DNA of 64,000 nt from a virus (Duplodnaviria > Caudoviricetes), in the IMG/VR virus record IMGVR_UViG_2824317532_000001, positions 1 through 64,000 of that record. One strand, 5' to 3'. A program made the position numbers and the translations under genes. This document shows, one piece after another, positions 4,984 to 39,024 of this stretch. Numbering within the stretch: the first letter of the stretch is position 1; every line of letters begins with the position of its first letter. The notes below the pieces were generated by a model, which was not told the origin of the DNA, ran no database searches, and saw nothing but the letters and a program-made list of their open reading frames with translations.

Positions 4984-5591
4984 TGCCCGTCGCGCTGCTG
5001 CCCCCGATCACCAGCTCCGGACCTCAGTCGTGGGGTACGCCAGAGAAGAAGACCCCGATCACCAGTGCTGAGCGGTACGCCCGCTGCCGTGGGATGAGCC
5101 GTTGGCATCGCATCCGGTCCGGCTACCAGGTTGAGGACGGCGCCCGCACGTTCAACCTGTGGTGCGGCACGTTCGTCTCCGACCGCAACGCCAAGGCCGG
5201 GCCTCCGCTACTCGCCGACGACATCGGCAACGACGACGTGTGTGCGATCTGCGTCGGCAAGGCGCTGGGCGCCGGCCAGGACGAACTCCCGGCCGGGATG
5301 CCGCGGTTGCGGTTTGATCCGCGCTGGTCGACACCGCCAGCAGTGTGCCCGGGGTCGGGCGATTCGGGGCTGTGGGTGCCGGTGCCGAACTCGCGGAACG
5401 TCGTCCGGTGTCTGGCGTGTGGGCTGGTGTTGTCCGGCAGGGCGTCGGGCGGGGCGTACAACCCGCGGTGGGGTGCGGTCCGGCATGCGCCCGGCGAGGG
5501 GCTGGTGGAGCCGTGCCCGTTTCATGCGTGGAATCACCTGCGGCGCGGTGACGGCGAGCAGGTCAGCTGCGGATGCGGGTGGCCGTCATGA
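4983..5591 (+). CDS. Cys-rich hypothetical protein (putative Zn-binding)
   Basis: CxxC pairs, coupled ORF. Confidence 0.65.
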   Translation: MPVALLPPITSSGPQSWGTPEKKTPITSAERYARCRGMSRWHRIRSGYQVEDGARTFNLWCGTFVSDRNAKAGPPLLADDIGNDDVCAICVGKALGAGQDELPAGMPRLRFDPRWSTPPAVCPGSGDSGLWVPVPNSRNVVRCLACGLVLSGRASGGAYNPRWGAVRHAPGEGLVEPCPFHAWNHLRRGDGEQVSCGCGWPS

Positions 5592-5842
5592 GCGTGTGGC
5601 GATTCGTTGACGGTGGCGCGGTCCGGCACCTGATCGATGAGGACGACGCTACGACCGCAGTGTGCGGGCACACGCCGTGGGCGGGCTGGGAGTGGCTGGG
5701 CGCCGCCGCGGCTGATGCCGGCGAGCTCGGGAAGCGCCGGGACTGCCTCGCCTGTGTGCGCATGGCGGGCTGCCCGCACGTGGCGTGCCGCACGACGGCA
5801 CGGCGGCCGGAGTTGCCGTGGTCGTGGGGTGAAGCAGCATGA
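5588..5842 (+). CDS. hypothetical protein (H..C..CxxC)
   Basis: ATGA overlaps on both sides. Confidence 0.6.
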   Translation: MSVWRFVDGGAVRHLIDEDDATTAVCGHTPWAGWEWLGAAAADAGELGKRRDCLACVRMAGCPHVACRTTARRPELPWSWGEAA

Positions 5843-6090
5843 CCGACAACCACGTGTGCGTGCCGGTGGTGGACGCCGACGGGCAGGTGATCGCGCATGC
5901 CCACGTCTCACCCGACCTGGACGAGCGCGGGCAGCAGGCGCTGGTGTCGGTGGTTGAGGCGGTGCGCCGGCTGGCGGCCGAAGAGGAAGCTGCCGATCCC
6001 GAAGGCGCGGCCGAGAAAGGCCGCCGCCAGGAAGCGGCTATCGCGCGGATCCGGGAACGGGTACGGCGGGCACGAGGTGAGGCCGAGTGA
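5839..6090 (+). CDS. hypothetical protein
   Basis: ATGA overlap, helical C-terminus. Confidence 0.6.
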   Translation: MTDNHVCVPVVDADGQVIAHAHVSPDLDERGQQALVSVVEAVRRLAAEEEAADPEGAAEKGRRQEAAIARIRERVRRARGEAE

Positions 6091-6092
6091 GG

Positions 6093-6302
6093 TCAGGTCG
6101 CCGACTTCGGCTTGGGCATCGGGGCGGGCCGTGTCCTCTTGACCGGTCCGCGTCGCTTTCCCGGCAGGGGCGTGTCCGGGTTGTCGAGCCGCCACTCGAT
6201 GTACGCCTTCAGGTCGGCAGAGCGGCCTGCATCTCCGACGAGTTCGCCGTAGTCCTTCCACGTCTGTTCGTCGAGGCGGAAGCGGCGGAGGTTGTCGGGC
6301 AC
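6093..6302 (-). CDS. ribbon-helix-helix-like small DNA-binding protein (leaderless)
   Basis: VPDNLRRFRLDEQTWKDY..GRSADLKAYIEW RHH pattern; TACGCT -10 element 6 nt before the GTG. Confidence 0.65.
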   Translation of the reverse strand: MPDNLRRFRLDEQTWKDYGELVGDAGRSADLKAYIEWRLDNPDTPLPGKRRGPVKRTRPAPMPKPKSAT

Positions 6303-30653: not shown

Positions 30654-31169
30654 ATGCCCGCCTCACGAGCAAAACGCGCCGACACCGCCCAGCGACGCCG
30701 CCAAGCCATCGACATGCGCATGGCCGGCGCCTCATACCAGCGCATCGCCGATCAGCTCGGCTACACCAGCCGCGGTGCCGCATGCCAAGACATCACCCGC
30801 GCCCTCGAGCAAGCCGTCGCCGAACAGATCATCTCCGCCGAGGCCTACCGCGAAGAAGAGTTGCAGCGCCTCGACGCGCTCCTCGCCGAAGCATGGGCCG
30901 TCCTCAAACGCGAGCACCTGACCGTCTCCCACGGCAAGGTCGTGTACGACGACACCACCGGGCAGCCGATCCTCGACGACGGACCCACGCTCGCCGCGAT
31001 CGACCGCATCCTCAAGATTCAAGAACGGCGTTCGAAGTACCTCGGCTTGGATGCCCCCACCCGCGTGGAGGCGATCACGATTGACAGCCTCGACGCTGAA
31101 ATCGCCAAGCTTGCCGCCGAGCTTGAAGGCGATCAAGCTGGAGAAGCTGCGGGAACTCCGCAGACTTAA
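30654..31169 (+). CDS. terminase small subunit
   Basis: RRRQAIDMRMAGASYQRIADQLGY HTH, AIDRILKIQERRSKYLGLDAP; precedes TerL. Confidence 0.8.
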   Translation: MPASRAKRADTAQRRRQAIDMRMAGASYQRIADQLGYTSRGAACQDITRALEQAVAEQIISAEAYREEELQRLDALLAEAWAVLKREHLTVSHGKVVYDDTTGQPILDDGPTLAAIDRILKIQERRSKYLGLDAPTRVEAITIDSLDAEIAKLAAELEGDQAGEAAGTPQT

Positions 31170-32700
31170 AGCCGAGAAGGAACACCGCAAGGCCGCCGAA
31201 GCGCGGGCCAAACGCGACGCCAACCGCAAGCGCTGGCCCAGCCCTCTGGACATGGCAGCGGATCTCGATCCGCCGCGGCTCGACGAAAACGGCGACCGGG
31301 CCGGCGCATGGCGCACTCCCGCGCTCGAACTCATCAACACCGCCCTCGTCGACCTGGCCGAAGGCCGGGAGAAGCGGCTAGCCGCGTTCATGAGCCCTCA
31401 AGAGGGCAAGTCGACGACCGTCTCGTTCTGGTTCCCGCTGTGGCTGCTCACCTGTGTTAACCCCAACCTACGCATTCTGATCATCTCGTATTCCGACGAG
31501 ATGGCCCGCCGGTGGGGCGCCGAAATCAAAGACGCCCTCGAACGCTGGTCCGGCGACGAAGGCACCATCGACCTCGGCCTCCGACTACGCAAAGACTCCC
31601 GCGCAGCCGGCCGCTGGAACATCGCCGGGCACAAGGGCTCCGTCTACTGCGCCGGCATCGCCGGATCCATCACCGGCAAACCCGGCGACGTGATCCTCGT
31701 TGACGACCCGCTCAAAAACATGAGCGAAGCCCAGTCGGAGAAGATCCGCGAAAAGGCCATGTCGGTCTACCGCTCCGCGATCGTGCCCCGGCTCGGCCCG
31801 TCAGCACGAATGGGATGGATCCAAACGTGCTGGCACGAGTCCGAGCCGATCCGGCAGATCCTCGCCAACGAAGGCGAACGCAAGAACGGCGGCCGGTGGC
31901 GCACCATCACCATCCCCGCGATCGCGGACTCCCCCAATGACGACCTCGGCCGGAAGATCGGCGAATGGCAGGAATCGGCTCGCGGCGAACGAGACTGGGC
32001 GGGCATCCGCAAGACCGTCGGCGAATACGTGTTCTCCGCCCTCTACCAGCAGCGGCCCAGCCCCGCCGAAGGCAACCTGTTCAAACGAATCTGGTGGCGC
32101 TACTGGTCGCATGCCCCACAGACCGGCGCTAGCCCGCGCCTGGACCTCGGTGGCCGGATCTTCGACTTGCAGGACTGCTGGCGGTTCGCGACCGTCGACC
32201 TCGCCAACTCGACGAAGACGTCCGGCGACTGGACGGTCATCTCCGCATGGGCGCGCAGCATCGACGGCGACCTGGTCCTACTTGACCGCACCCGGGCGAA
32301 GATCGGCGAAATCGACCACTTCACCCACGCCCGGCCGCTCGTACAGCGCTGGCAGCTCGACACCCTGTACGTCGAACAATCCCAGTACGGCACCACACTG
32401 GTCCGTGAAGCAACCAACGACCGAGTGCCGATCGCACCGCTGGTCGCTGACACCGACAAACTGAGCCGCGCCCTGCCCGCGTCGGCGTGGGCGTCGAACG
32501 GCCGGATCTGGTTACCTGCCGGCGCCGACTGGATCAAAACGTGGGTGGACGAGTTCGCCGGGTTCCCGAACGCCGCCCACGACGACCAGGTAGACACACT
32601 CGCCTACGCGGTTCGTGTCGCGGTGACAAAGTGGGCGCCACCGCCGCCTCGCCCACCGGACCAGTCATCGGGCGGAGACCCGCTGAACAGCCCGATGTGA
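31081..32700 (+). CDS. terL: terminase large subunit
   Basis: SPQEGKST Walker A, ILVDDP Walker B, LYQQRPSP, TVDLA, FPNAAHDDQVD; GGAGG before TTG at 31081. Confidence 0.92.
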   Translation: MTASTLKSPSLPPSLKAIKLEKLRELRRLKAEKEHRKAAEARAKRDANRKRWPSPLDMAADLDPPRLDENGDRAGAWRTPALELINTALVDLAEGREKRLAAFMSPQEGKSTTVSFWFPLWLLTCVNPNLRILIISYSDEMARRWGAEIKDALERWSGDEGTIDLGLRLRKDSRAAGRWNIAGHKGSVYCAGIAGSITGKPGDVILVDDPLKNMSEAQSEKIREKAMSVYRSAIVPRLGPSARMGWIQTCWHESEPIRQILANEGERKNGGRWRTITIPAIADSPNDDLGRKIGEWQESARGERDWAGIRKTVGEYVFSALYQQRPSPAEGNLFKRIWWRYWSHAPQTGASPRLDLGGRIFDLQDCWRFATVDLANSTKTSGDWTVISAWARSIDGDLVLLDRTRAKIGEIDHFTHARPLVQRWQLDTLYVEQSQYGTTLVREATNDRVPIAPLVADTDKLSRALPASAWASNGRIWLPAGADWIKTWVDEFAGFPNAAHDDQVDTLAYAVRVAVTKWAPPPPRPPDQSSGGDPLNSPM

Positions 32701-32727
32701 TAGACGCTGGTGAGGTGGTGGTCTCCG

Positions 32728-34821
32728 GTGACCGCCCCAACCTCCGTGAAGGGCTTCGTCGATCCGTACACGCTCGGCACCGATTTCGGGTCCCTGTACG
32801 TTGACCTGCTCGAGCACGTGCCCGACCTGACGTGGCCGCTGTCGGTTCCGGTGTACGCGAAGATGCGCCGCGATCCTCAGCTGACCGCCATCTTGCAGGG
32901 CTGGACGTTGCAGTTGCGGCGCGCCCAGTGGCAGATCGACCCGGCCGGCTGCCGGCCCGAGGTGGTGTCGGCGGTCGCGGACGGGCTCGGGCTCGCGGTG
33001 GCGGGCGCGGACAAGCCGGGTGCGGCGCGGCTGCGTGGCGTTTCCTGGAGCGAGCATCTCCAGGCCGCGTTGCGTGCGCTGACGTTCGGGCACGCGGCGT
33101 TCGAGATGCAGGCGGACGTGTCCAGCGGCAAGGCACTGCTGTCGGGGCTGTGGGAGCGCCCGCAGTGGACGATCTCCCACATCCACGTGGACGGGAAGAC
33201 CGGCCTACTCGAGGGCATCACCCAGGACGCGGCAACCAACCTCGTTAGCCCGCAGATCAAGGCTGACCGGCTCGTCTGGTACGTCGCCGACCGGGAAGGC
33301 GCGAACTGGGCGGGCACCTCTCTACTGCGGCCCGCCTACGCTGCGTGGCTCATCAAGGAGGAGATGCGGCGCGTCCACGCCATCGCCAACCGAAGATGGG
33401 GCATGGGCGTCCCCGTCATGGAGGCGCTGCCCGGCACGAACCCGACCAGCGGGCAGATGACCGAAGCCATGCAGTTGGCTGCCGCCGCCCGATCCGGGGA
33501 ACAGGCCGGCGCGGCGACTCCGCCTGGCTTCACCCTCAAGATTCAGGGACTCTCGGGTAGTGTGCCGGACACGCTGTCGTTCATGCGCTGGCTCGATCAG
33601 CAGATGTCCCGCGCCGCCCTGATGGGCATGCTGGACCTCGGCGAGACACCGAACGGATCCCGCGCCCTTGGCGAAACGTTCGTCGACGCGTTCCTGCTTG
33701 CCCTCGAGGCGACCGCCGAAGCCGTCGCGGACACCGCCACCCGGCAGGCAGCGGCACGAATCGTCGACTGGAACTGGGGCGCCGACGAACCCGTCCCCCG
33801 CATCGTGGTGTCCGGCGTCGGTAGCCGGCGCGAAGTCACCGCTGAGGCGCTGCAAATGCTTCTCGCCTCCGGTGGGCTCGCCTCCGACCCTGGTCTCGAG
33901 GCGTGGATCCGTCGTGAATGGCGGCTGCCAGAACGTGAGGGTATGGCCCAGCCGAAGCCGACTGCGCCGGGCGTGGACCTGCCGGACAAGGACGAGAAGC
34001 CGCCCGCCGAACCCGAGCAAGAGGTTGCGGCGGCAGCCAAGCCTCGCCCGCGGTCGCGGCGCCGTACTCAGCAGCCGTCACTGTTCGACGACGACGACGG
34101 GGAATCTGACGCGGCCCGCATTCAGCAGCAGTGGGATCAGGCGAAAGCCCGGCTGCTGCGCCGCTGGCCGAAACTGGCGGCACCTTTGGTCGGCGAACTC
34201 GCCGACCAGGCGCAGGCCGCCGTAGAAGTCGGCGACCTGGGACTGCTCGGGCAGCTGCAGGCGTCCGCCGGTGTGGTCGCCGCGCTGGCGGTGCCGCTAC
34301 GAAAGTCGGGCACCGACCTGGCTGCGGAGGCTGCAGCCGGGGTGGTGGCGGAGGCCGCCGCCCAGGACACCGTCATCGACGTGCCGGCCGAGCCGGGCGC
34401 GGACCGGGTGCAGCAGCACGCGGACGCCGTCGCCCGCATCATCGCCGCCGGCTACGCCTCCGGTGCGGCCCGAACCAGCCTGCAACTCGCCGGAGCTGCG
34501 CCGCAGGAAGTCCGCAACGAGGTAGAGCGGCATCTCACCGAACTGGGAACCTCGGTGAACGGCCTGGTCGGCGACAACATCGGCAGCCTGCTCAGTGCCG
34601 CACAGTTCGCTGGCCGCCTCGCTGTCCTCGAGGAAAACCCGGCCACGGCATATCGGGCGAACGAGACGCCGGACCGGAACACCTGCGACCCCTGCAAGGC
34701 CATCAACGGGACCGAGTTTCAGACGCTGCGGGCCGCGCTCGCCGCCTACCCGCTGTCGGGCCAGCACGCCGCGTGCGAGGGGCGTTCACGCTGCCGCGGG
34801 TTCATCGTTCCGATCTTCTAG
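32728..34821 (+). CDS. portal protein (DUF935-like) fused to MuF-like minor head domain
   Basis: YAKMRRDPQL, FGHAAFE, GTSLLRPAY..W..K, RWGMGVP, GSRALG; C-terminal DRNTCDPC..CEGRSRCRG. Confidence 0.85.
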   Translation: MTAPTSVKGFVDPYTLGTDFGSLYVDLLEHVPDLTWPLSVPVYAKMRRDPQLTAILQGWTLQLRRAQWQIDPAGCRPEVVSAVADGLGLAVAGADKPGAARLRGVSWSEHLQAALRALTFGHAAFEMQADVSSGKALLSGLWERPQWTISHIHVDGKTGLLEGITQDAATNLVSPQIKADRLVWYVADREGANWAGTSLLRPAYAAWLIKEEMRRVHAIANRRWGMGVPVMEALPGTNPTSGQMTEAMQLAAAARSGEQAGAATPPGFTLKIQGLSGSVPDTLSFMRWLDQQMSRAALMGMLDLGETPNGSRALGETFVDAFLLALEATAEAVADTATRQAAARIVDWNWGADEPVPRIVVSGVGSRREVTAEALQMLLASGGLASDPGLEAWIRREWRLPEREGMAQPKPTAPGVDLPDKDEKPPAEPEQEVAAAAKPRPRSRRRTQQPSLFDDDDGESDAARIQQQWDQAKARLLRRWPKLAAPLVGELADQAQAAVEVGDLGLLGQLQASAGVVAALAVPLRKSGTDLAAEAAAGVVAEAAAQDTVIDVPAEPGADRVQQHADAVARIIAAGYASGAARTSLQLAGAAPQEVRNEVERHLTELGTSVNGLVGDNIGSLLSAAQFAGRLAVLEENPATAYRANETPDRNTCDPCKAINGTEFQTLRAALAAYPLSGQHAACEGRSRCRGFIVPIF

Positions 34822-34850
34822 CCGGTAGGACCGACTTCGGAAGGAGGTCG

Positions 34851-35063
34851 GTGGTGGAGCAGAAACCCAGTATCGGCCGCATCGTCCACTACGTGCAGTA
34901 CGAGGGCAACAAATGCCGCGCCGCGATCATCACCGACGTCGAAGACGACGGAACGGTTGGCCTGTACGTGATGACGCCGGACCGTGGTGCCCACAGCCAG
35001 AACGAATGCCCGTACGACGACGGCCACACCTATGGCACGTGGCACTGGCCGACGCGAACGTGA
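34851..35063 (+). CDS. small conserved phage protein
   Basis: KPSIGRIVHYV..RAAIIT..GTWHWP; AAGGAGG RBS. Confidence 0.75.
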   Translation: MVEQKPSIGRIVHYVQYEGNKCRAAIITDVEDDGTVGLYVMTPDRGAHSQNECPYDDGHTYGTWHWPTRT

Positions 35064-35074
35064 GGCGGTGACCC

Positions 35075-37597
35075 ATGCCTGACGTGGAACTCGCCCGCCG
35101 TGAAGGCGTCGAGCTGGTCCGCACCGGCAGGTTCCAAACCCTCACCGGCTCGTGGAACCCGACACCGAAAGACATTCAGGCCGCCGTCGAGGCCATGGAC
35201 TGCCCGGCGATCCGAAAGCCGGTTATCCGGCTTGGGCACACCGACGATCGGTTCGTGCCTCGCGGCGACGGGGAGCCGGCACTCGGCTGGTTCGAGAACC
35301 TGCGTGCCGCTGACGGCGGGCACACGCTGGTCGCCGACCAGGTGACGCTGCCGTGGCTGCATTCGGTTCAGGCTGCCGCCTACCCATCGCGGTCGATCGA
35401 GGGCAACTACAACCATCGCTGTTCCGAAGGCCACCTGCACCCGTTCGTCATTCACACCGTCGCCCTGCTTGGTGTAACCCCGCCCGGGGTGCAGACGCTG
35501 CGGTCGTTGAACGACCTGCCAGAGATGCTCGGGGTCGCCGCAACCGGTGAGGTACCCGAGGGTGCCGAGCATGTGCAGGTGACGGTCCTGGCGGGCCGGC
35601 ACTCGTTCGACGAGTCGAAACATGCCCGCGACGACGACGGCAAGTTCACGTCCGGGTCCGGTGGCGGCGGTGGTGACGGATCGCCTGTTCAGCCTGCCCC
35701 AGCCTCCGGGCTGAAACGCAATGAGCGGCTCGCGAAACGCATCCCTCTCGGCAAGGGCGAAACGTATGTCGGCAGCGGCACCGTCCGTGACGGCGGGTTC
35801 GCGGTCGCCGCCGTGGACGGCCCGGACGGGCGCACCGTCCGGCTCGGTGTCGGCATCGACCCCGACGAGATCGGCCAGTGGTCCGGCGCCAACCGGGGCG
35901 GAACGGTCGTCCTCGACCAGGAACGTCTCGACCAAACCCGCGAGGCGATCGCCCAGCTCCTCGAAGCGGCAAAGACCGGAAAAGCCAAGGTCCGTGCCCT
36001 GCATAAGGAATGGGACCGGCTCGAAGCGGCCGAGAACAAACTCTTTGGCAAGTCGTCGATGTCGGAGTCCGACGAGAACAAGTTGGACGAGATCCGGGAA
36101 CAGCGGAAAGCCAACGAGGACGCGCTGGACAAGCTCGCCGACTTCGGTGTCCTCGAAGAGGGCGTGATTCACGCCGAGTGGGGTGACCTGCACCTGCAGG
36201 CGTACATGTCCGACGACAGCCCGCAGTTCAAGGTCGAGGTGAAAGCGAGCCGGGAAGCGCCGTCCCGGTTCGACGAGATCCTCGAAGTGCGACACCTGAC
36301 CAGGCTCGCAGCCCTACTGGAGAAGGCGGGCGCCGCGAAACCGGTGCAGGCCGCCGCCGCGCAGGTTCAGGCCGCCGCCGAGGTGCACACGGGCGCGATG
36401 GTGGCGCTCATCCCCACGCCCGAGGACGCGGCACGGCTGGCGGTCGAGGGCGGGGAACCGGCCGAGGAACTGCACGTCACGCTCGCTTACCTCGGTGAGG
36501 CTGCTGCCCTCGGCGCCCGCGGCAGGCAGGACGTCATCGACGGCGTCTCCACCGCAGCCAACGGTCTCCCCCAGTTCGAGGCCGAAGCGTTCGCGTTGAA
36601 CGTCTTCAACCCGCCGGGTGCGCAACGCGACGACGGCCAAGATCGGGACACCTGTCTGGTGCTCGGCTTGTCCGGGGACCCCATCGACGCCGTCCACGAC
36701 CTGGTGGCCGAAGCGCTACGTGAGGCGTTGTGGTCGATCGACGTCCCGCCGCAGCATCGCCCGTGGCACGCGCATATGACCTTGGAGTACACCGAGGATC
36801 TGTCGAAGCTGGCCAACCTGGTCGACCGGATCGGGCCGGTCCGGTTCGACCGGATCCGCGTGGCGTTCGGCGGCGAGCACATCGACATCCCGCTGATCGG
36901 CCCAGACGAAGACGACATGGTCGCGGCGAGTGCCGCGATCCGTGGCCGGATCCCGCCGATCCGGGAACGCCTGGCCCGGCTGGTGGCCGCGGCTGCACCC
37001 GCCGATCCCCCGCCGGAAGACCCGGCATCCAGTCTCCCGGCCGCCGAGCCGGAGCCCAACAAACAAGAGGAGGACCTCGTGTCCCTGAGCGATGAACTGC
37101 GCTCGCGGCTCGGCCTCGCCGACGGCGCCGAGGAGGTCGACGCTCTGGCGGCGATCGACGCGCTGAAGGCGGCGGCCGAGAAGAGCCCCGAGCCGACGGC
37201 GGAGATGATCCAGGCTTCGGCCAACGCGACGGCGAAGGCCGAGCAGGCGGAGGCGGAGAAGGACGAACTCCGCAAGGAGGTCAACGTCCTGGCTTCCCGC
37301 ATGGAGCAGGTCACCACCGAACTCGCGGCGGCGAAGGCCGAGCAGGCGGCAACGGTGAAGGCTTCCGTGCTGGATGACGCCATCAAGCAGGGCAAGATCA
37401 AGCCCGCGGACAAGGCGCAGTGGGAAACCGACTACGACGACGCCCCAGCCGCGATCACCCGGGTTCTCGCTTCCATCGCCCCCGGCACTGCGGTTCCCGT
37501 GATGGCGGCCGGGCACGCCGGGCCGGCCGAACCGACCAGCGGCGACAGCCTGGACGCCGAGTACGAGCGCCTCTTCGGCGAGAAGGCTGGTGCCTGA
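35075..37597 (+). CDS. prohead protease - cargo domain - 2H phosphoesterase - scaffold polyprotein
   Basis: Mu gpI-like protease N-terminus (LGH, PALGW, YPSRSIE); FDESKHARDDDGKF; HVT and HMT 2H motifs; coiled-coil scaffold (AIKQGKIKPA). Confidence 0.82.
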   Translation: MPDVELARREGVELVRTGRFQTLTGSWNPTPKDIQAAVEAMDCPAIRKPVIRLGHTDDRFVPRGDGEPALGWFENLRAADGGHTLVADQVTLPWLHSVQAAAYPSRSIEGNYNHRCSEGHLHPFVIHTVALLGVTPPGVQTLRSLNDLPEMLGVAATGEVPEGAEHVQVTVLAGRHSFDESKHARDDDGKFTSGSGGGGGDGSPVQPAPASGLKRNERLAKRIPLGKGETYVGSGTVRDGGFAVAAVDGPDGRTVRLGVGIDPDEIGQWSGANRGGTVVLDQERLDQTREAIAQLLEAAKTGKAKVRALHKEWDRLEAAENKLFGKSSMSESDENKLDEIREQRKANEDALDKLADFGVLEEGVIHAEWGDLHLQAYMSDDSPQFKVEVKASREAPSRFDEILEVRHLTRLAALLEKAGAAKPVQAAAAQVQAAAEVHTGAMVALIPTPEDAARLAVEGGEPAEELHVTLAYLGEAAALGARGRQDVIDGVSTAANGLPQFEAEAFALNVFNPPGAQRDDGQDRDTCLVLGLSGDPIDAVHDLVAEALREALWSIDVPPQHRPWHAHMTLEYTEDLSKLANLVDRIGPVRFDRIRVAFGGEHIDIPLIGPDEDDMVAASAAIRGRIPPIRERLARLVAAAAPADPPPEDPASSLPAAEPEPNKQEEDLVSLSDELRSRLGLADGAEEVDALAAIDALKAAAEKSPEPTAEMIQASANATAKAEQAEAEKDELRKEVNVLASRMEQVTTELAAAKAEQAATVKASVLDDAIKQGKIKPADKAQWETDYDDAPAAITRVLASIAPGTAVPVMAAGHAGPAEPTSGDSLDAEYERLFGEKAGA
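37079..37597 (+). CDS. nested in-frame scaffold protein
   Basis: Strong internal SD (GAGGAGG) before in-frame GTG at 37079, as in lambda C/Nu3 and Mu I/Z. Confidence 0.6.
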   Translation: MSLSDELRSRLGLADGAEEVDALAAIDALKAAAEKSPEPTAEMIQASANATAKAEQAEAEKDELRKEVNVLASRMEQVTTELAAAKAEQAATVKASVLDDAIKQGKIKPADKAQWETDYDDAPAAITRVLASIAPGTAVPVMAAGHAGPAEPTSGDSLDAEYERLFGEKAGA

Positions 37598-37989
37598 TGG
37601 CTGACTACGCCCCCCTGTGGATGCCCGGTGACGTCATCACCGTCACCACCTCCGCCGCGGTGACCGGCGGCAAGTGCCTCGTCGTCTCTGGCAACGGAAC
37701 CGTCGCCATGTCGTCCGCGTCGTCGGTGAAGTGGGTCGGTGTCGCCGCCTGCGACATCGCCTCTGGTGCGGTCGGCCCGATGCACGGCCGCGGCCAGGTC
37801 CACACGTCGACCGCGGCGGGTGCGATCACTGCCGGGGATCAGCTGGTGACGGCCGCGTCGGGCAACGTGGCCGCGCTCGCGGCTGCCAGCACCGACACGG
37901 CGACCGACATCAACTCCGCCAGGTCGGTGATCGGTATCGCCCTGACGACCGCGGCGGACACGGCCACGGTCACCTGGATGGAGATCTAG
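37597..37989 (+). CDS. capsid decoration/cement protein (DUF2190-like)
   Basis: GVAACDIASG..AAGAITAGDQL..IGIALT. Confidence 0.8.
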   Translation: MADYAPLWMPGDVITVTTSAAVTGGKCLVVSGNGTVAMSSASSVKWVGVAACDIASGAVGPMHGRGQVHTSTAAGAITAGDQLVTAASGNVAALAAASTDTATDINSARSVIGIALTTAADTATVTWMEI

Positions 37990-38085: not shown

Positions 38086-39024
38086 ATGCCTCTGCTGGCA
38101 TACCCGCCGGCCCCGGCGTCCCTGTCGGGTGACCTGCTCACCATCAACCGGATGCTGCAGAATCCTGCAGTCATCCAGCGGCGTCTCAAGATGCTCACCG
38201 ACATCGGGTTCATCGCCGACGAGCTGCTGCCGGCGAAGTACCGGACGTCGGGCGGCTCCGTCGCCTACGAGATCAACGACCAGCCGCTGTTCACCAACCG
38301 CAGCATCACCGCTGTGGCACCGGGCTCTGAGTACCCGCGGGCGCTCCCCCAGTCCGGTACCGCTGCGCTGGCCGCGGTGTCGAAGTGGGGTCAGGCCACC
38401 GAGCTGACCGACGAGCGGATCAAGCGGTCGCTGCCGATGGGTAGCGCGGTGGACTGGGCGCTGCGGATCGTCGTCAACACCATCATCCAGAAGATCGACC
38501 GGCTGGCGATCGCCGCGGTCGCGTCGGCGGTCACCGAGACCGTGGCGGCGGCCGCGGTGTGGACCGGTTCGTCCGCCGACATCCTCCTGGACCTGGAGAA
38601 GTCGAAGGCGGCAGTCGACGGGCAGGAGATGGGCTACAAGGCCGACACCCTGCTGATCGACAACACGCTGTACGCGTACCTCGCCGCCGACGACAAGATC
38701 GCCACCCTGCGGCGTCGGGAGTCCACCGACAACCCGGTGTACGGCGGCGTCATCGAGACGATCGCCGGTCTCAAGGTGCTCAAGACGCCGGTCGCGAACA
38801 TGCCCGGCGCTGCCAGCGCCGCGTGGGTCGTCGACAGCCGTGCCCTCGGCGGGCTGGCCGACGAGAACGAGCTCGACCCGGGCTACGCCTCGTCGGAGAA
38901 CGGCGTGCAGGTCCAGACCCGGCGGGTCGCCGAGCGGGACGCCTGGCACATGTGGGCGCGCCGGATCACCGTGCCGGTGGTCACGGACCCGCTCGCCGGC
39001 CGGAAGATCACGGGTACGTCGTGA
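38086..39024 (+). CDS. major capsid protein
   Basis: VAPGSEYP..KWGQATELTDE HK97-fold pattern; position after decoration gene. Confidence 0.88.
   Translation: MPLLAYPPAPASLSGDLLTINRMLQNPAVIQRRLKMLTDIGFIADELLPAKYRTSGGSVAYEINDQPLFTNRSITAVAPGSEYPRALPQSGTAALAAVSKWGQATELTDERIKRSLPMGSAVDWALRIVVNTIIQKIDRLAIAAVASAVTETVAAAAVWTGSSADILLDLEKSKAAVDGQEMGYKADTLLIDNTLYAYLAADDKIATLRRRESTDNPVYGGVIETIAGLKVLKTPVANMPGAASAAWVVDSRALGGLADENELDPGYASSENGVQVQTRRVAERDAWHMWARRITVPVVTDPLAGRKITGTS

Follow-up and report, generated by a model that had tools for sequence, protein, structure and literature searches.

The window analysed here, positions 1 to 64,000 of the IMG/VR virus record IMGVR_UViG_2824317532_000001 (GC content about 67%), holds the head module of a Mu-like prophage in an Actinoplanes genome; the 840-amino-acid (aa) polyprotein is 100% identical over the whole length to a contig of Actinoplanes campanulatus JCM 3059. 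The subject of this study is that polyprotein, in which a protease, two cargo domains and a scaffold follow one another in a single chain, and a four-residue sequence, [Val/Ile]-x-Ala-Ser (here [VI]xAS), that recurs along it and is likely to be the cutting rule of the protease. The genes and domains concerned are given below by position in the window and strand.

31051-32700, + strand: large terminase of the head module.
32710..34821, + strand: portal protein (Mu gp29-like), 703 aa (PF06074 Portal_Mu, expect value (E) 6.4e-51, residues 48-404; phrog_113 portal), with a C-terminal extension labelled MuF in the first-pass annotation of this DNA.
35075..37597, + strand: polyprotein, 840 aa, comprising protease, cargo 1, 2H phosphoesterase and scaffold (open reading frame (ORF), Pfam, PHROG and AlphaFold model).
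35075..35479, + strand: protease core, residues 1-135 (phrog_3894 head maturation protease, E 3.1e-67, residues 4-188).
35702..36334, + strand: cargo 1, residues ~210-420 (structured in the AlphaFold model).
36386..36892, + strand: 2H phosphoesterase cargo, residues 438-606, with HVTL and HMTL motifs (PF13563, residues 462-586).
37079..37597, + strand: Mu gpZ-like scaffold, residues 669-840 (PF10123 at 38.3 bits, cut-off 25.2).
38086..39024, + strand: major capsid protein, 312 aa, without a site and used as a negative control (PF25209, phrog_1650).

The AlphaFold model of the polyprotein (40 homologues; mean predicted local distance difference test score (pLDDT) 76.8) has as its folded units the protease (residues 1-135), cargo 1 (~210-420), the 2H domain (438-606) and the scaffold helices (673-834), with low-confidence linkers at residues 136-157, 175-208, 394-398, 422-437, 647-669 and 808-825. 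Candidate cut sites are distributed along the chain as follows; an additional IQAA at residue 34, within a confidently modelled protease helix, probably arose by chance. Counts of homologues refer to the 120-protein set described below.

35366..35377, + strand: VQAA, residues 98-101, inside the protease, at a pLDDT dip at 100-102.
35531-35545, + strand: GVAAT, residues 153-157 of the translated ORF, containing VAAT (154-157; 35534..35545), the post-protease site, in the disordered segment 136-157.
35582-35596, + strand: TVLAG, residues 170-174 of the translated ORF, containing VLAG (171-174; 35585..35596), the second site before cargo 1, at a strand end and followed by low pLDDT at 175-208.
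36239..36250, + strand: VKAS, residues 389-392, towards the end of cargo 1, beside low pLDDT at 394-398.
36344..36379, + strand: tandem VQAAAAQVQAAA, residues 424-435, a pair of sites separating cargo 1 from the 2H domain; segment 422-437 around them is disordered.
36920..36931, + strand: VAAS, residues 616-619 (within MVAAS, 615-619), after the 2H domain (alignment).
36983..36994, + strand: VAAA, residues 637-640 (within LVAAA, 636-640), after a short helical module (alignment).
37208..37219, + strand: IQAS, residues 712-715, scaffold site 1 (PEMVAAS-type site in 87/120 homologues).
37286..37297, + strand: VLAS, residues 738-741, scaffold site 2 (54/120 homologues).
37355..37366, + strand: VKAS, residues 761-764, scaffold site 3 (T[VI][KR]AS in 85/120 homologues).
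37463..37474, + strand: VLAS, residues 797-800, scaffold site 4 ([RE][VI]LASI in 80/120 homologues).
37499..37510, + strand: VMAA, residues 809-812, the final site, with 28 residues left before the C-terminus; the surrounding segment 808-825 is disordered.

The first-pass annotation had drawn attention to strings of the form V/I-x-A-[A/S/G] and had proposed that they lie at every domain boundary. All of the strings it named, among them the tandem between cargo 1 and the 2H domain, are present, at the positions it gave, in two + strand ORFs. Their location at domain boundaries proved roughly right: of 14 sites, 8 fall inside a segment with pLDDT <50 or no more than 2 residues away from one, such segments totalling 135 of the 840 residues, but four others fall in scaffold helices and IQAA 34 in a protease helix.

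The polyprotein is rich in Ala (15.5%) and Val (7.3%), yet the motif exceeds what this composition provides. [VI]xA[ASG] occurs 13 times, against a mean of 4.06 when the whole protein is shuffled and 4.50 when shuffling is confined to 25-aa windows, and [VI]xAS six times, against 0.54-0.66; because none of 5000 shuffles reached either observed count, a test named in the first pass, which might have reduced the motif to Ala/Val composition, failed to refute it. The family shows the excess too. In the 120 proteins listed by a first homologue search (469-1387 aa, the query among them), [VI]xAS was observed 794 times against 80.3 expected (9.9x), [VI]xAA 622 times against 237.9 (2.6x) and [VI]xAG 126 times against 119.1 (1.06x); [LM]xAS, with 60 occurrences against 68.7 expected (0.87x), was not in excess, and order-scrambled control motifs stood at 1.0-1.4x. 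The protease domain was also compared with 1.84 billion cluster representatives, giving 1563 matches at E<=0.001, and the best 150 of these 1563 added 121 further proteins, each the representative of a 50%-identity cluster. These contained 334 [VI]xAS against 65.0 expected (5.1x; controls 0.8-1.2x), with at least one site in 109/121 proteins, and [VI]xAG at 1.5x. Val or Ile stood two residues upstream of 334/842 Ala-Ser dipeptides (40%).

Since the homologues are related, two further checks accompanied the search for new representatives. When sites whose flanks were at least 40% identical were collapsed to one, [VI]xAS was left with 133 distinct flank contexts, or 1.65 per expected occurrence, compared with 0.2-0.57 for fifteen control motifs and with 0.74 and 0.92 for the overlapping, related patterns [VI]xAA and [VI]AxS. 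An unbiased scan of 113 representatives covered every a-x-b-c triple lying outside their protease core; V-x-A-S ranked first (207 observed, 33.7 expected, z 29.8, in 86 proteins), and among the eight top-ranked patterns only V-x-A-S and the weaker V-x-A-A occurred clearly more than once per protein. On these counts the signal can be refined to [VI]-x-A-S: at the last place Ala is weaker than Ser and Gly barely above chance, and Leu is not used at the first place. The pattern proposed in the first pass thus held strongly for Ser and less so for Ala, but hardly for Gly, and it does not cover the GVAAT string, whose last residue is Thr.

A background built from the ORFs of the window itself (third-position GC >=0.85; 10 observed against 6.1 expected over 27 ORFs) was discarded: this filter dropped the polyprotein and kept many doubtful ORFs. 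Because that set was flawed, the portal and capsid protein families were used as background instead. The portal family is neutral for [VI]xAS (74 observed, 73.7 expected), and the capsid protein family (n=120) is depleted, with 6 [VI]xAS against 38.7 expected and 14 [VI]xAA against 80.8, which fits selection against being cut, though this family is closely related.

Within the polyprotein family the enrichment is confined to the linkers and the scaffold. [VI]xAS was observed 438 times in the scaffold part (26.5 expected) and 246 times in the remaining linkers and cargo (27.4 expected), as against 4 times in the folded 2H core (9.4 expected). Sites bracket the 2H domain itself: among 241 polyprotein-family proteins there were 84 recognisable 2H domains, 82 of which had a site within 20 aa upstream (24.8% of background windows) and 81 a site within 35 aa downstream (41.5% of background windows).

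Optional modules behave similarly. After the 2H domain, relatives variably possess modules of ~55 and ~90 residues, each flanked by V-x-A-[SAG], and alignment of this region showed that where a module is absent its flanking sites collapse to one; VAAA 637-640 aligns with V[KHA]A[SAG] of relatives, where it precedes these modules. The shorter module carries L-K-x-Y-W...H-P-W-T-x-L-Y and the longer a C-terminal L-V-F-A-S-R. Cargo 1, likewise, sits between VLAG and the tandem VQAA-AA-QVQAA. At the VLAG position homologues read VQVT[IV]xA followed by A or G, and relatives without cargo 1 read VQVT[IV]xA-AAEVHTG. Relatives sharing cargo 1 have two sites at its end, for example PVQAS-TVHAAAE, with IEAS at the place of VKAS 389; one site is found where cargo 1 is absent. 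The codons at the 14 polyprotein sites vary, and both serine codon families are used, so that selection acts on the peptide and not on a DNA signal; a motif at the DNA level, such as a recombination signal, is ruled out on the same ground.

A post-protease sequence [LFY][GN][VIL]xA[SAGT], the first motif residue being allowed as V, I or L, was found in 97/120 homologues, most commonly as LGVAAS, of which GVAAT is the local variant; the last residue across the 97 matches was S in 62, A in 24, G in 7, P in 3 and T in 1, this single Thr being VAAT of the window polyprotein. By analogy, VAAT 154-157 corresponds to the release (R) site of herpesviruses, with Thr in place of the usual Ser. At the other end, the position of VMAA 809-812 is occupied by VPV.A[SA]G in 99/120 homologues. 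The distance from the last site to the C-terminus has a median of 32 residues and is 20-60 residues in 115/120, and VMAA can be likened to the herpesvirus maturation (M) site. A further site lies within the protease, where VQAA 98-101 precedes the catalytic-type Ser107 by 6 residues (5-8 for the motif copy here and in relatives). It is conserved as V-Q-A-A-A-Y-P here, V-M-A-S-A-Y-P in many relatives or I-M-A-S-A-W-P, and [VI]xA[SA] was present within 14 aa upstream of RS[IV]E in 64/117 representatives. Such a copy may serve as an internal inactivation site, as in certain herpesvirus proteases, or may simply belong to the fold.

The protease domain had neither a Pfam match nor a sequence match in the PDB. 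His55, Ser107, His120 and His122, in the order His...Ser...His, are invariant in 41 aligned sequences. A separate model of the domain (pLDDT 73.7; predicted template modelling score 0.68) was searched against 48,161 representative chains, and its three best matches were varicella-zoster virus protease (1vzv) at Z 7.2 (root-mean-square deviation 4.1, 107 residues aligned), phage T4 gp21 (5jbl) at Z 6.6 (4.4, 109 residues aligned) and human cytomegalovirus protease (8j3s) at Z 5.0. In a second structural comparison the top 15 chains were all herpesvirus proteases or gp21; pseudorabies pUL26N reached Z 6.7, and the herpesvirus and gp21 matches together spanned Z 5.0-7.2 over 105-117 residues. Predicted structures in BFVD annotated as phage protease/scaffold also matched the domain, with E down to 1.6e-10. 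As modelled, the domain shares the fold of assemblin and T4 gp21.

The scaffold part is preceded by a candidate start of its own:

37069..37081, + strand: candidate internal start, GGAGG, a 5-nucleotide spacer and GTG (residue 669), in frame.

Seventeen related loci were examined, eight of which were without the anchor motif. In 9/9 anchored loci a start codon (GTG, TTG or ATG) and a Shine-Dalgarno-like sequence are found at the matching position, and although the encoded residue varies between V, L and M, the codon is always a start codon. To judge from the sequences, conservation of a start codon despite a changing residue is the signature of an internal start, and position 37079 onward is probably a nested scaffold gene.

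Taken together, these observations make it likely that the assemblin-fold head protease of this clade cuts by the rule [V/I]-x-A|S, and such cutting would release the protease, free the cargo and fragment the scaffold. The following course of events is proposed. Through its scaffold end the entire chain would enter the procapsid as this assembles, and a shorter, scaffold-only product, probably made from the internal start at residue 669, would set how much cargo there is relative to scaffold. Once in the procapsid, the protease would cut after the Ala of [Val/Ile]-x-Ala|Ser, and Ala, or rarely Gly or Thr, could take the place of the Ser. A cut at LGVAA|T, the R-like site, would release the protease, and cuts at the bracketing sites would free each cargo domain. 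The scaffold would be reduced to peptides of 12-36 residues able to leave the shell, and a cut at the M-like site would detach a C-terminal tail of ~30 residues which, by analogy only, may bind the capsid protein. Once freed, the cargo enzymes would remain in the head and pass into the host together with the DNA. The first-pass annotation had likewise suggested a self-cleavage code that frees the cargo, and the enrichment, the variety of contexts, the bracketing of domains, the depletion in folded domains and in capsid protein, the selection at peptide level, the fold and the invariant residues all argue in its favour. What the data show is the motif with its specificity and placement, the fold, the conserved catalytic-type residues and the conserved internal start; cleavage itself, the exact bond, packaging and injection are inferred from these.

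Several observations weigh against this interpretation. No cleavage product was found for any member of the clade, nor any proteomic data, in the literature outside supplementary files. The homologues are related, so raw counts exaggerate the number of independent events. Alignment end-points from BLAST, tried as a proxy for module borders, did not discriminate between sites (1.37x) and Ala-containing controls (1.3-1.4x), and were rejected. Scaffold sites 712, 738, 761 and 797 fall in predicted helices rather than linkers, and of the key sites in the window polyprotein two are off-consensus, VAAT behind the protease and VMAA close to the C-terminus. The structural Z scores are all below 8, a range in which a common arrangement alone may score, and Foldseek gave no match at E<=0.001 between the protease domain and the PDB (0.19 or worse). 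Finally, relatives in Arthrobacter phages, with proteases 28-37% identical, have 0-1 [VI]xAS, and phage Mu gpI has none.

This last point defines the reach of the code. Rhodococcus phage Mbo4, Gordonia phage Francois and Corynebacterium phage Dina, whose proteases are ~50% identical, each have 3-4 [VI]xAS where 0.3-0.6 would be expected; all three share the post-protease site, and Mbo4 and Francois, but not Dina, have the in-protease site as well. The motif is abundant where the protease is at least ~45% identical, and its scarcity or absence in Arthrobacter phages and Mu gpI means that the code is clade-specific; extension of V-x-A-S to distant relatives is ruled out by the same counts. Mu gpI (gene I, positions 5057-6142 of the Mu sequence) has instead six copies of the tripeptide LSA, against a shuffle mean of 0.25 and with 0/2000 shuffles reaching six. 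Five of the six are in the Z scaffold part, and in a profile alignment two fall within one residue of the PEMVAAS and TVKAS sites of the polyprotein family, so LSA may be Mu's own dialect of the cut site.

An alternative is that the motif is never cut, and is an element by which scaffold and linkers bind the capsid shell, the portal or one another and which is conserved for assembly. The four scaffold sites in predicted helices would suit a docking role, as would the fact that the scaffold holds most of the [VI]xAS (438/794) and that the copy in the protease is part of a conserved helix beside the catalytic-type Ser. The motif nevertheless recurs in Pro/Glu/Asp-rich disordered linkers around unrelated optional modules and in 133 different flank contexts, and one would not expect a docking element to stand on both sides of every inserted module, nor to be avoided in the capsid protein. 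This explanation is therefore considered unlikely. Cutting by a host protease with a preference for small residues (Ala|Ser), rather than by the phage enzyme, is less probable again. V-x-A| does fit the -3/-1 rule of bacterial type I signal peptidases, and the present data do not indicate which enzyme would cut, but these are cytoplasmic head-assembly proteins, presumed to be free of signal-peptide features, the motif tracks the protease clade, being nearly absent in Arthrobacter phages and replaced by LSA in Mu gpI, and the phage protease keeps its conserved catalytic-type residues. That Ala/Val-rich composition and shared ancestry inflated a pattern chosen post hoc is very improbable and largely refuted, for all that the protein is rich in these residues, its homologues are related and the Gly-ending pattern is hardly enriched: the enrichment is kept in local shuffles within 25-aa windows (9.1x and 5.3x), permuted and neighbouring motifs stand at ~1x, portals of the same phages at 1.0x, and the motif ranks first in an unbiased scan.

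Cleavage by the head protease had also been suggested in the first pass for the linker that joins portal and MuF, where one string is found.

34021-34038, + strand: EVAAAA, residues 438-443, in the portal-MuF linker (translated ORF).
34024..34035, + strand: VAAA, residues 439-442, a weak candidate cut site directly before the basic patch KPRPRSRRR.

A basic patch was recognised by a set rule in 83 of 96 fused portals, and [VI]xA[ASG] lay within 14 aa upstream of it in 43/83, compared with 9.3% of background 15-aa windows; about half of the patch-bearing fused portals are thus without a linker site, and the portal family is, as noted, not enriched. Moreover, 25 unfused portals run ~30 residues beyond the linker site, through a conserved QPSLFDD-type tail, which places the true fusion junction ~30 residues further on. 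(These 25 portals, of <600 aa and most of them portal-only, mostly end in VAAR-x-ADLDWGLFG...QPSLFDD...FAPA.) The MuF label was not confirmed by Pfam either: for the C-terminal 234 aa (residues 470-703) matches at E<=10 were noise only, the best having E 0.06 and being to unrelated families. The last 62 residues matched phrog_595 weakly (E 0.0072), and the position of this half after the portal fits MuF. Cleavage at the linker VAAA is accordingly possible but doubtful, and separation of portal and MuF is a weak part of the original proposal.

The cargo domains differ in how well they can be identified. The 2H domain scored 33.7 bits against PF13563 (cut-off 27) and was the only part found by Foldseek with the whole 840-aa model, its matches including Usb1 (5v1m, E 1e-5), LigT and phage Acb1 (7t27, E 2.6e-3); it possesses both features that define the 2H phosphoesterase superfamily, the two H-x-T/S motifs and the fold. 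Cargo 1 had no Pfam match, a Pfam search with residues 1-423 gave nothing usable, and comparison of the whole polyprotein with PDB chains by sequence gave 0 matches at E<=1. Weak fold leads for cargo 1 are to nucleic-acid binders of PUR-alpha/PC4 type (PURA 8cht, E 3.1e-3; template modelling score 0.38-0.45). In three polyprotein homologues an ADP-ribosyltransferase domain (PF03496) occupies the place of cargo between protease and scaffold, and the same domain is present in one portal fusion homologue. As for neighbouring genes, a small ORF (~34850-35063, + strand) fills the space that separates the portal fusion from the polyprotein, and a 130-aa ORF (37597-37989, + strand) has an ATG overlapping the polyprotein stop; by eye the latter resembles the short 'scaffolding protein' ORF between the protease and capsid genes of Gordonia and Rhodococcus phages.

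If the proposed rule is correct, a phage head protease would share the cutting rule of herpesvirus assemblin, and the layout of sites and the nested scaffold gene would match as well, so that phages and herpesviruses would be tied by the logic of their substrates, beyond the fold. The four-residue signal would then predict which domains are packed in the capsid, 2H phosphoesterases and ADP-ribosyltransferases included, and these cargo domains would be candidate early-acting counter-defence enzymes, the fold relatives of the 2H domain including Acb1, which acts against the cyclic oligonucleotide-based antiphage signalling system (CBASS). Cultured relatives in phages of Gordonia, Rhodococcus and Corynebacterium make the V-x-A|S rule directly testable. 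A bolder proposal, and one that on present evidence is rather unlikely, is that the V-x-A|S rule, together with the release and maturation sites and the nested gene for the scaffold, forms one ancient package from a common ancestor with herpesviruses, which this phage lineage made into a plug-in delivery platform and of which Mu's LSA is a dialect. Were that so, any domain between protease and scaffold flanked by the four-residue signal would be loaded, freed and injected, and the cargo of hundreds of prophages would be readable from sequence.

Motif codes of prohead proteases and effectors delivered by the capsid are both already known, but no report of the V-x-A-S rule or of the protease-cargo-scaffold layout was found in the literature, again outside supplements. 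Iyer et al. (2017, PMC5512222) describe effector domains, among them 2H phosphoesterases and ADP-ribosyltransferases, that are fused to the head proteins of phages and so delivered along with the DNA. Assemblin-like peptidases, reported to be always C-terminal, also occur in the polyvalent proteins treated there, and no cut-site motif was found in what that account says of them (PMC5512222). In the window polyprotein, by contrast with polyvalent proteins and MuF-portal-effector fusions, the assemblin-like peptidase is N-terminal and a scaffold follows.

In phage T4 each cargo protein has a gene of its own and a short targeting peptide at its N-terminus; these proteins are not threaded as domains between protease and scaffold. 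The gp21 protease of T4 has the same fold as that of the polyprotein (5jbl, Z 6.6) and breaks its scaffold, gp22, down to small fragments; other proteins, which remain in the head and are injected, are trimmed by it too. One protein packed in the T4 head, Alt, is an ADP-ribosyltransferase (PMC5512222), an activity also represented among polyprotein relatives by PF03496, and the T4 protease is reported to cut after Glu, at I/L-x-E (PMC12991175). The gene order of Mu, namely portal, MuF-like protein, protease-scaffold and capsid protein, is also that of the window, and Mu has an annotated internal start for Z. The scaffold of the polyprotein matches PF10123, although only at profile positions 142-313 of 330, the scaffold half (polyprotein residues 659-829), and hhalign to Mu gpI likewise aligned the scaffold part only (gpI residues 175-289, probability 62.7%). 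The N-terminal protease part matches neither the Mu profile nor Mu gpI, so that by sequence the scaffold is Mu-like and the protease not detectably so; gpI, unlike the polyprotein, has no cargo domains, and has LSA in place of [VI]xAS. Prohead proteases of giant phages, such as phiKZ gp175 and SPN3US gp245, act at a short motif on many different head and ejection proteins. This motif ends in Glu, and the substrates differ in being separate proteins with N-terminal propeptides. For these phages a sequence motif is reported to predict the processed head proteins, the propeptides holding several copies of it (PMC10052503).

A further parallel is herpesvirus UL26/UL26.5. The phage is a tailed virus of a bacterial host, and differs in inserting cargo enzymes between protease and scaffold, in a scaffold with up to five internal sites, in a protease core of only ~135 residues and in leaving Leu unused at the first place; the structural likeness is modest (Z <=7.2), with no sequence match to any PDB chain. 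In both systems, however, an N-terminal protease of the same fold class, with an invariant His...Ser...His order, is fused to a C-terminal scaffold. The herpesvirus assemblin consensus is (V/L/I)-x-A|S, the same succession of an aliphatic residue, any residue, Ala and Ser as in the phage, where the bond would be the same one. Pseudorabies assemblin ends in Ala225 (PMC4498786). In herpesviruses the protease-scaffold precursor is cut at two places, a release site that follows the protease and a maturation site close to the C-terminus, and a nested gene gives the scaffold alone (PMC4498786); the phage polyprotein, correspondingly, has one site just after the protease, another ~30 residues from the C-terminus, and a probable in-frame nested gene for its scaffold.

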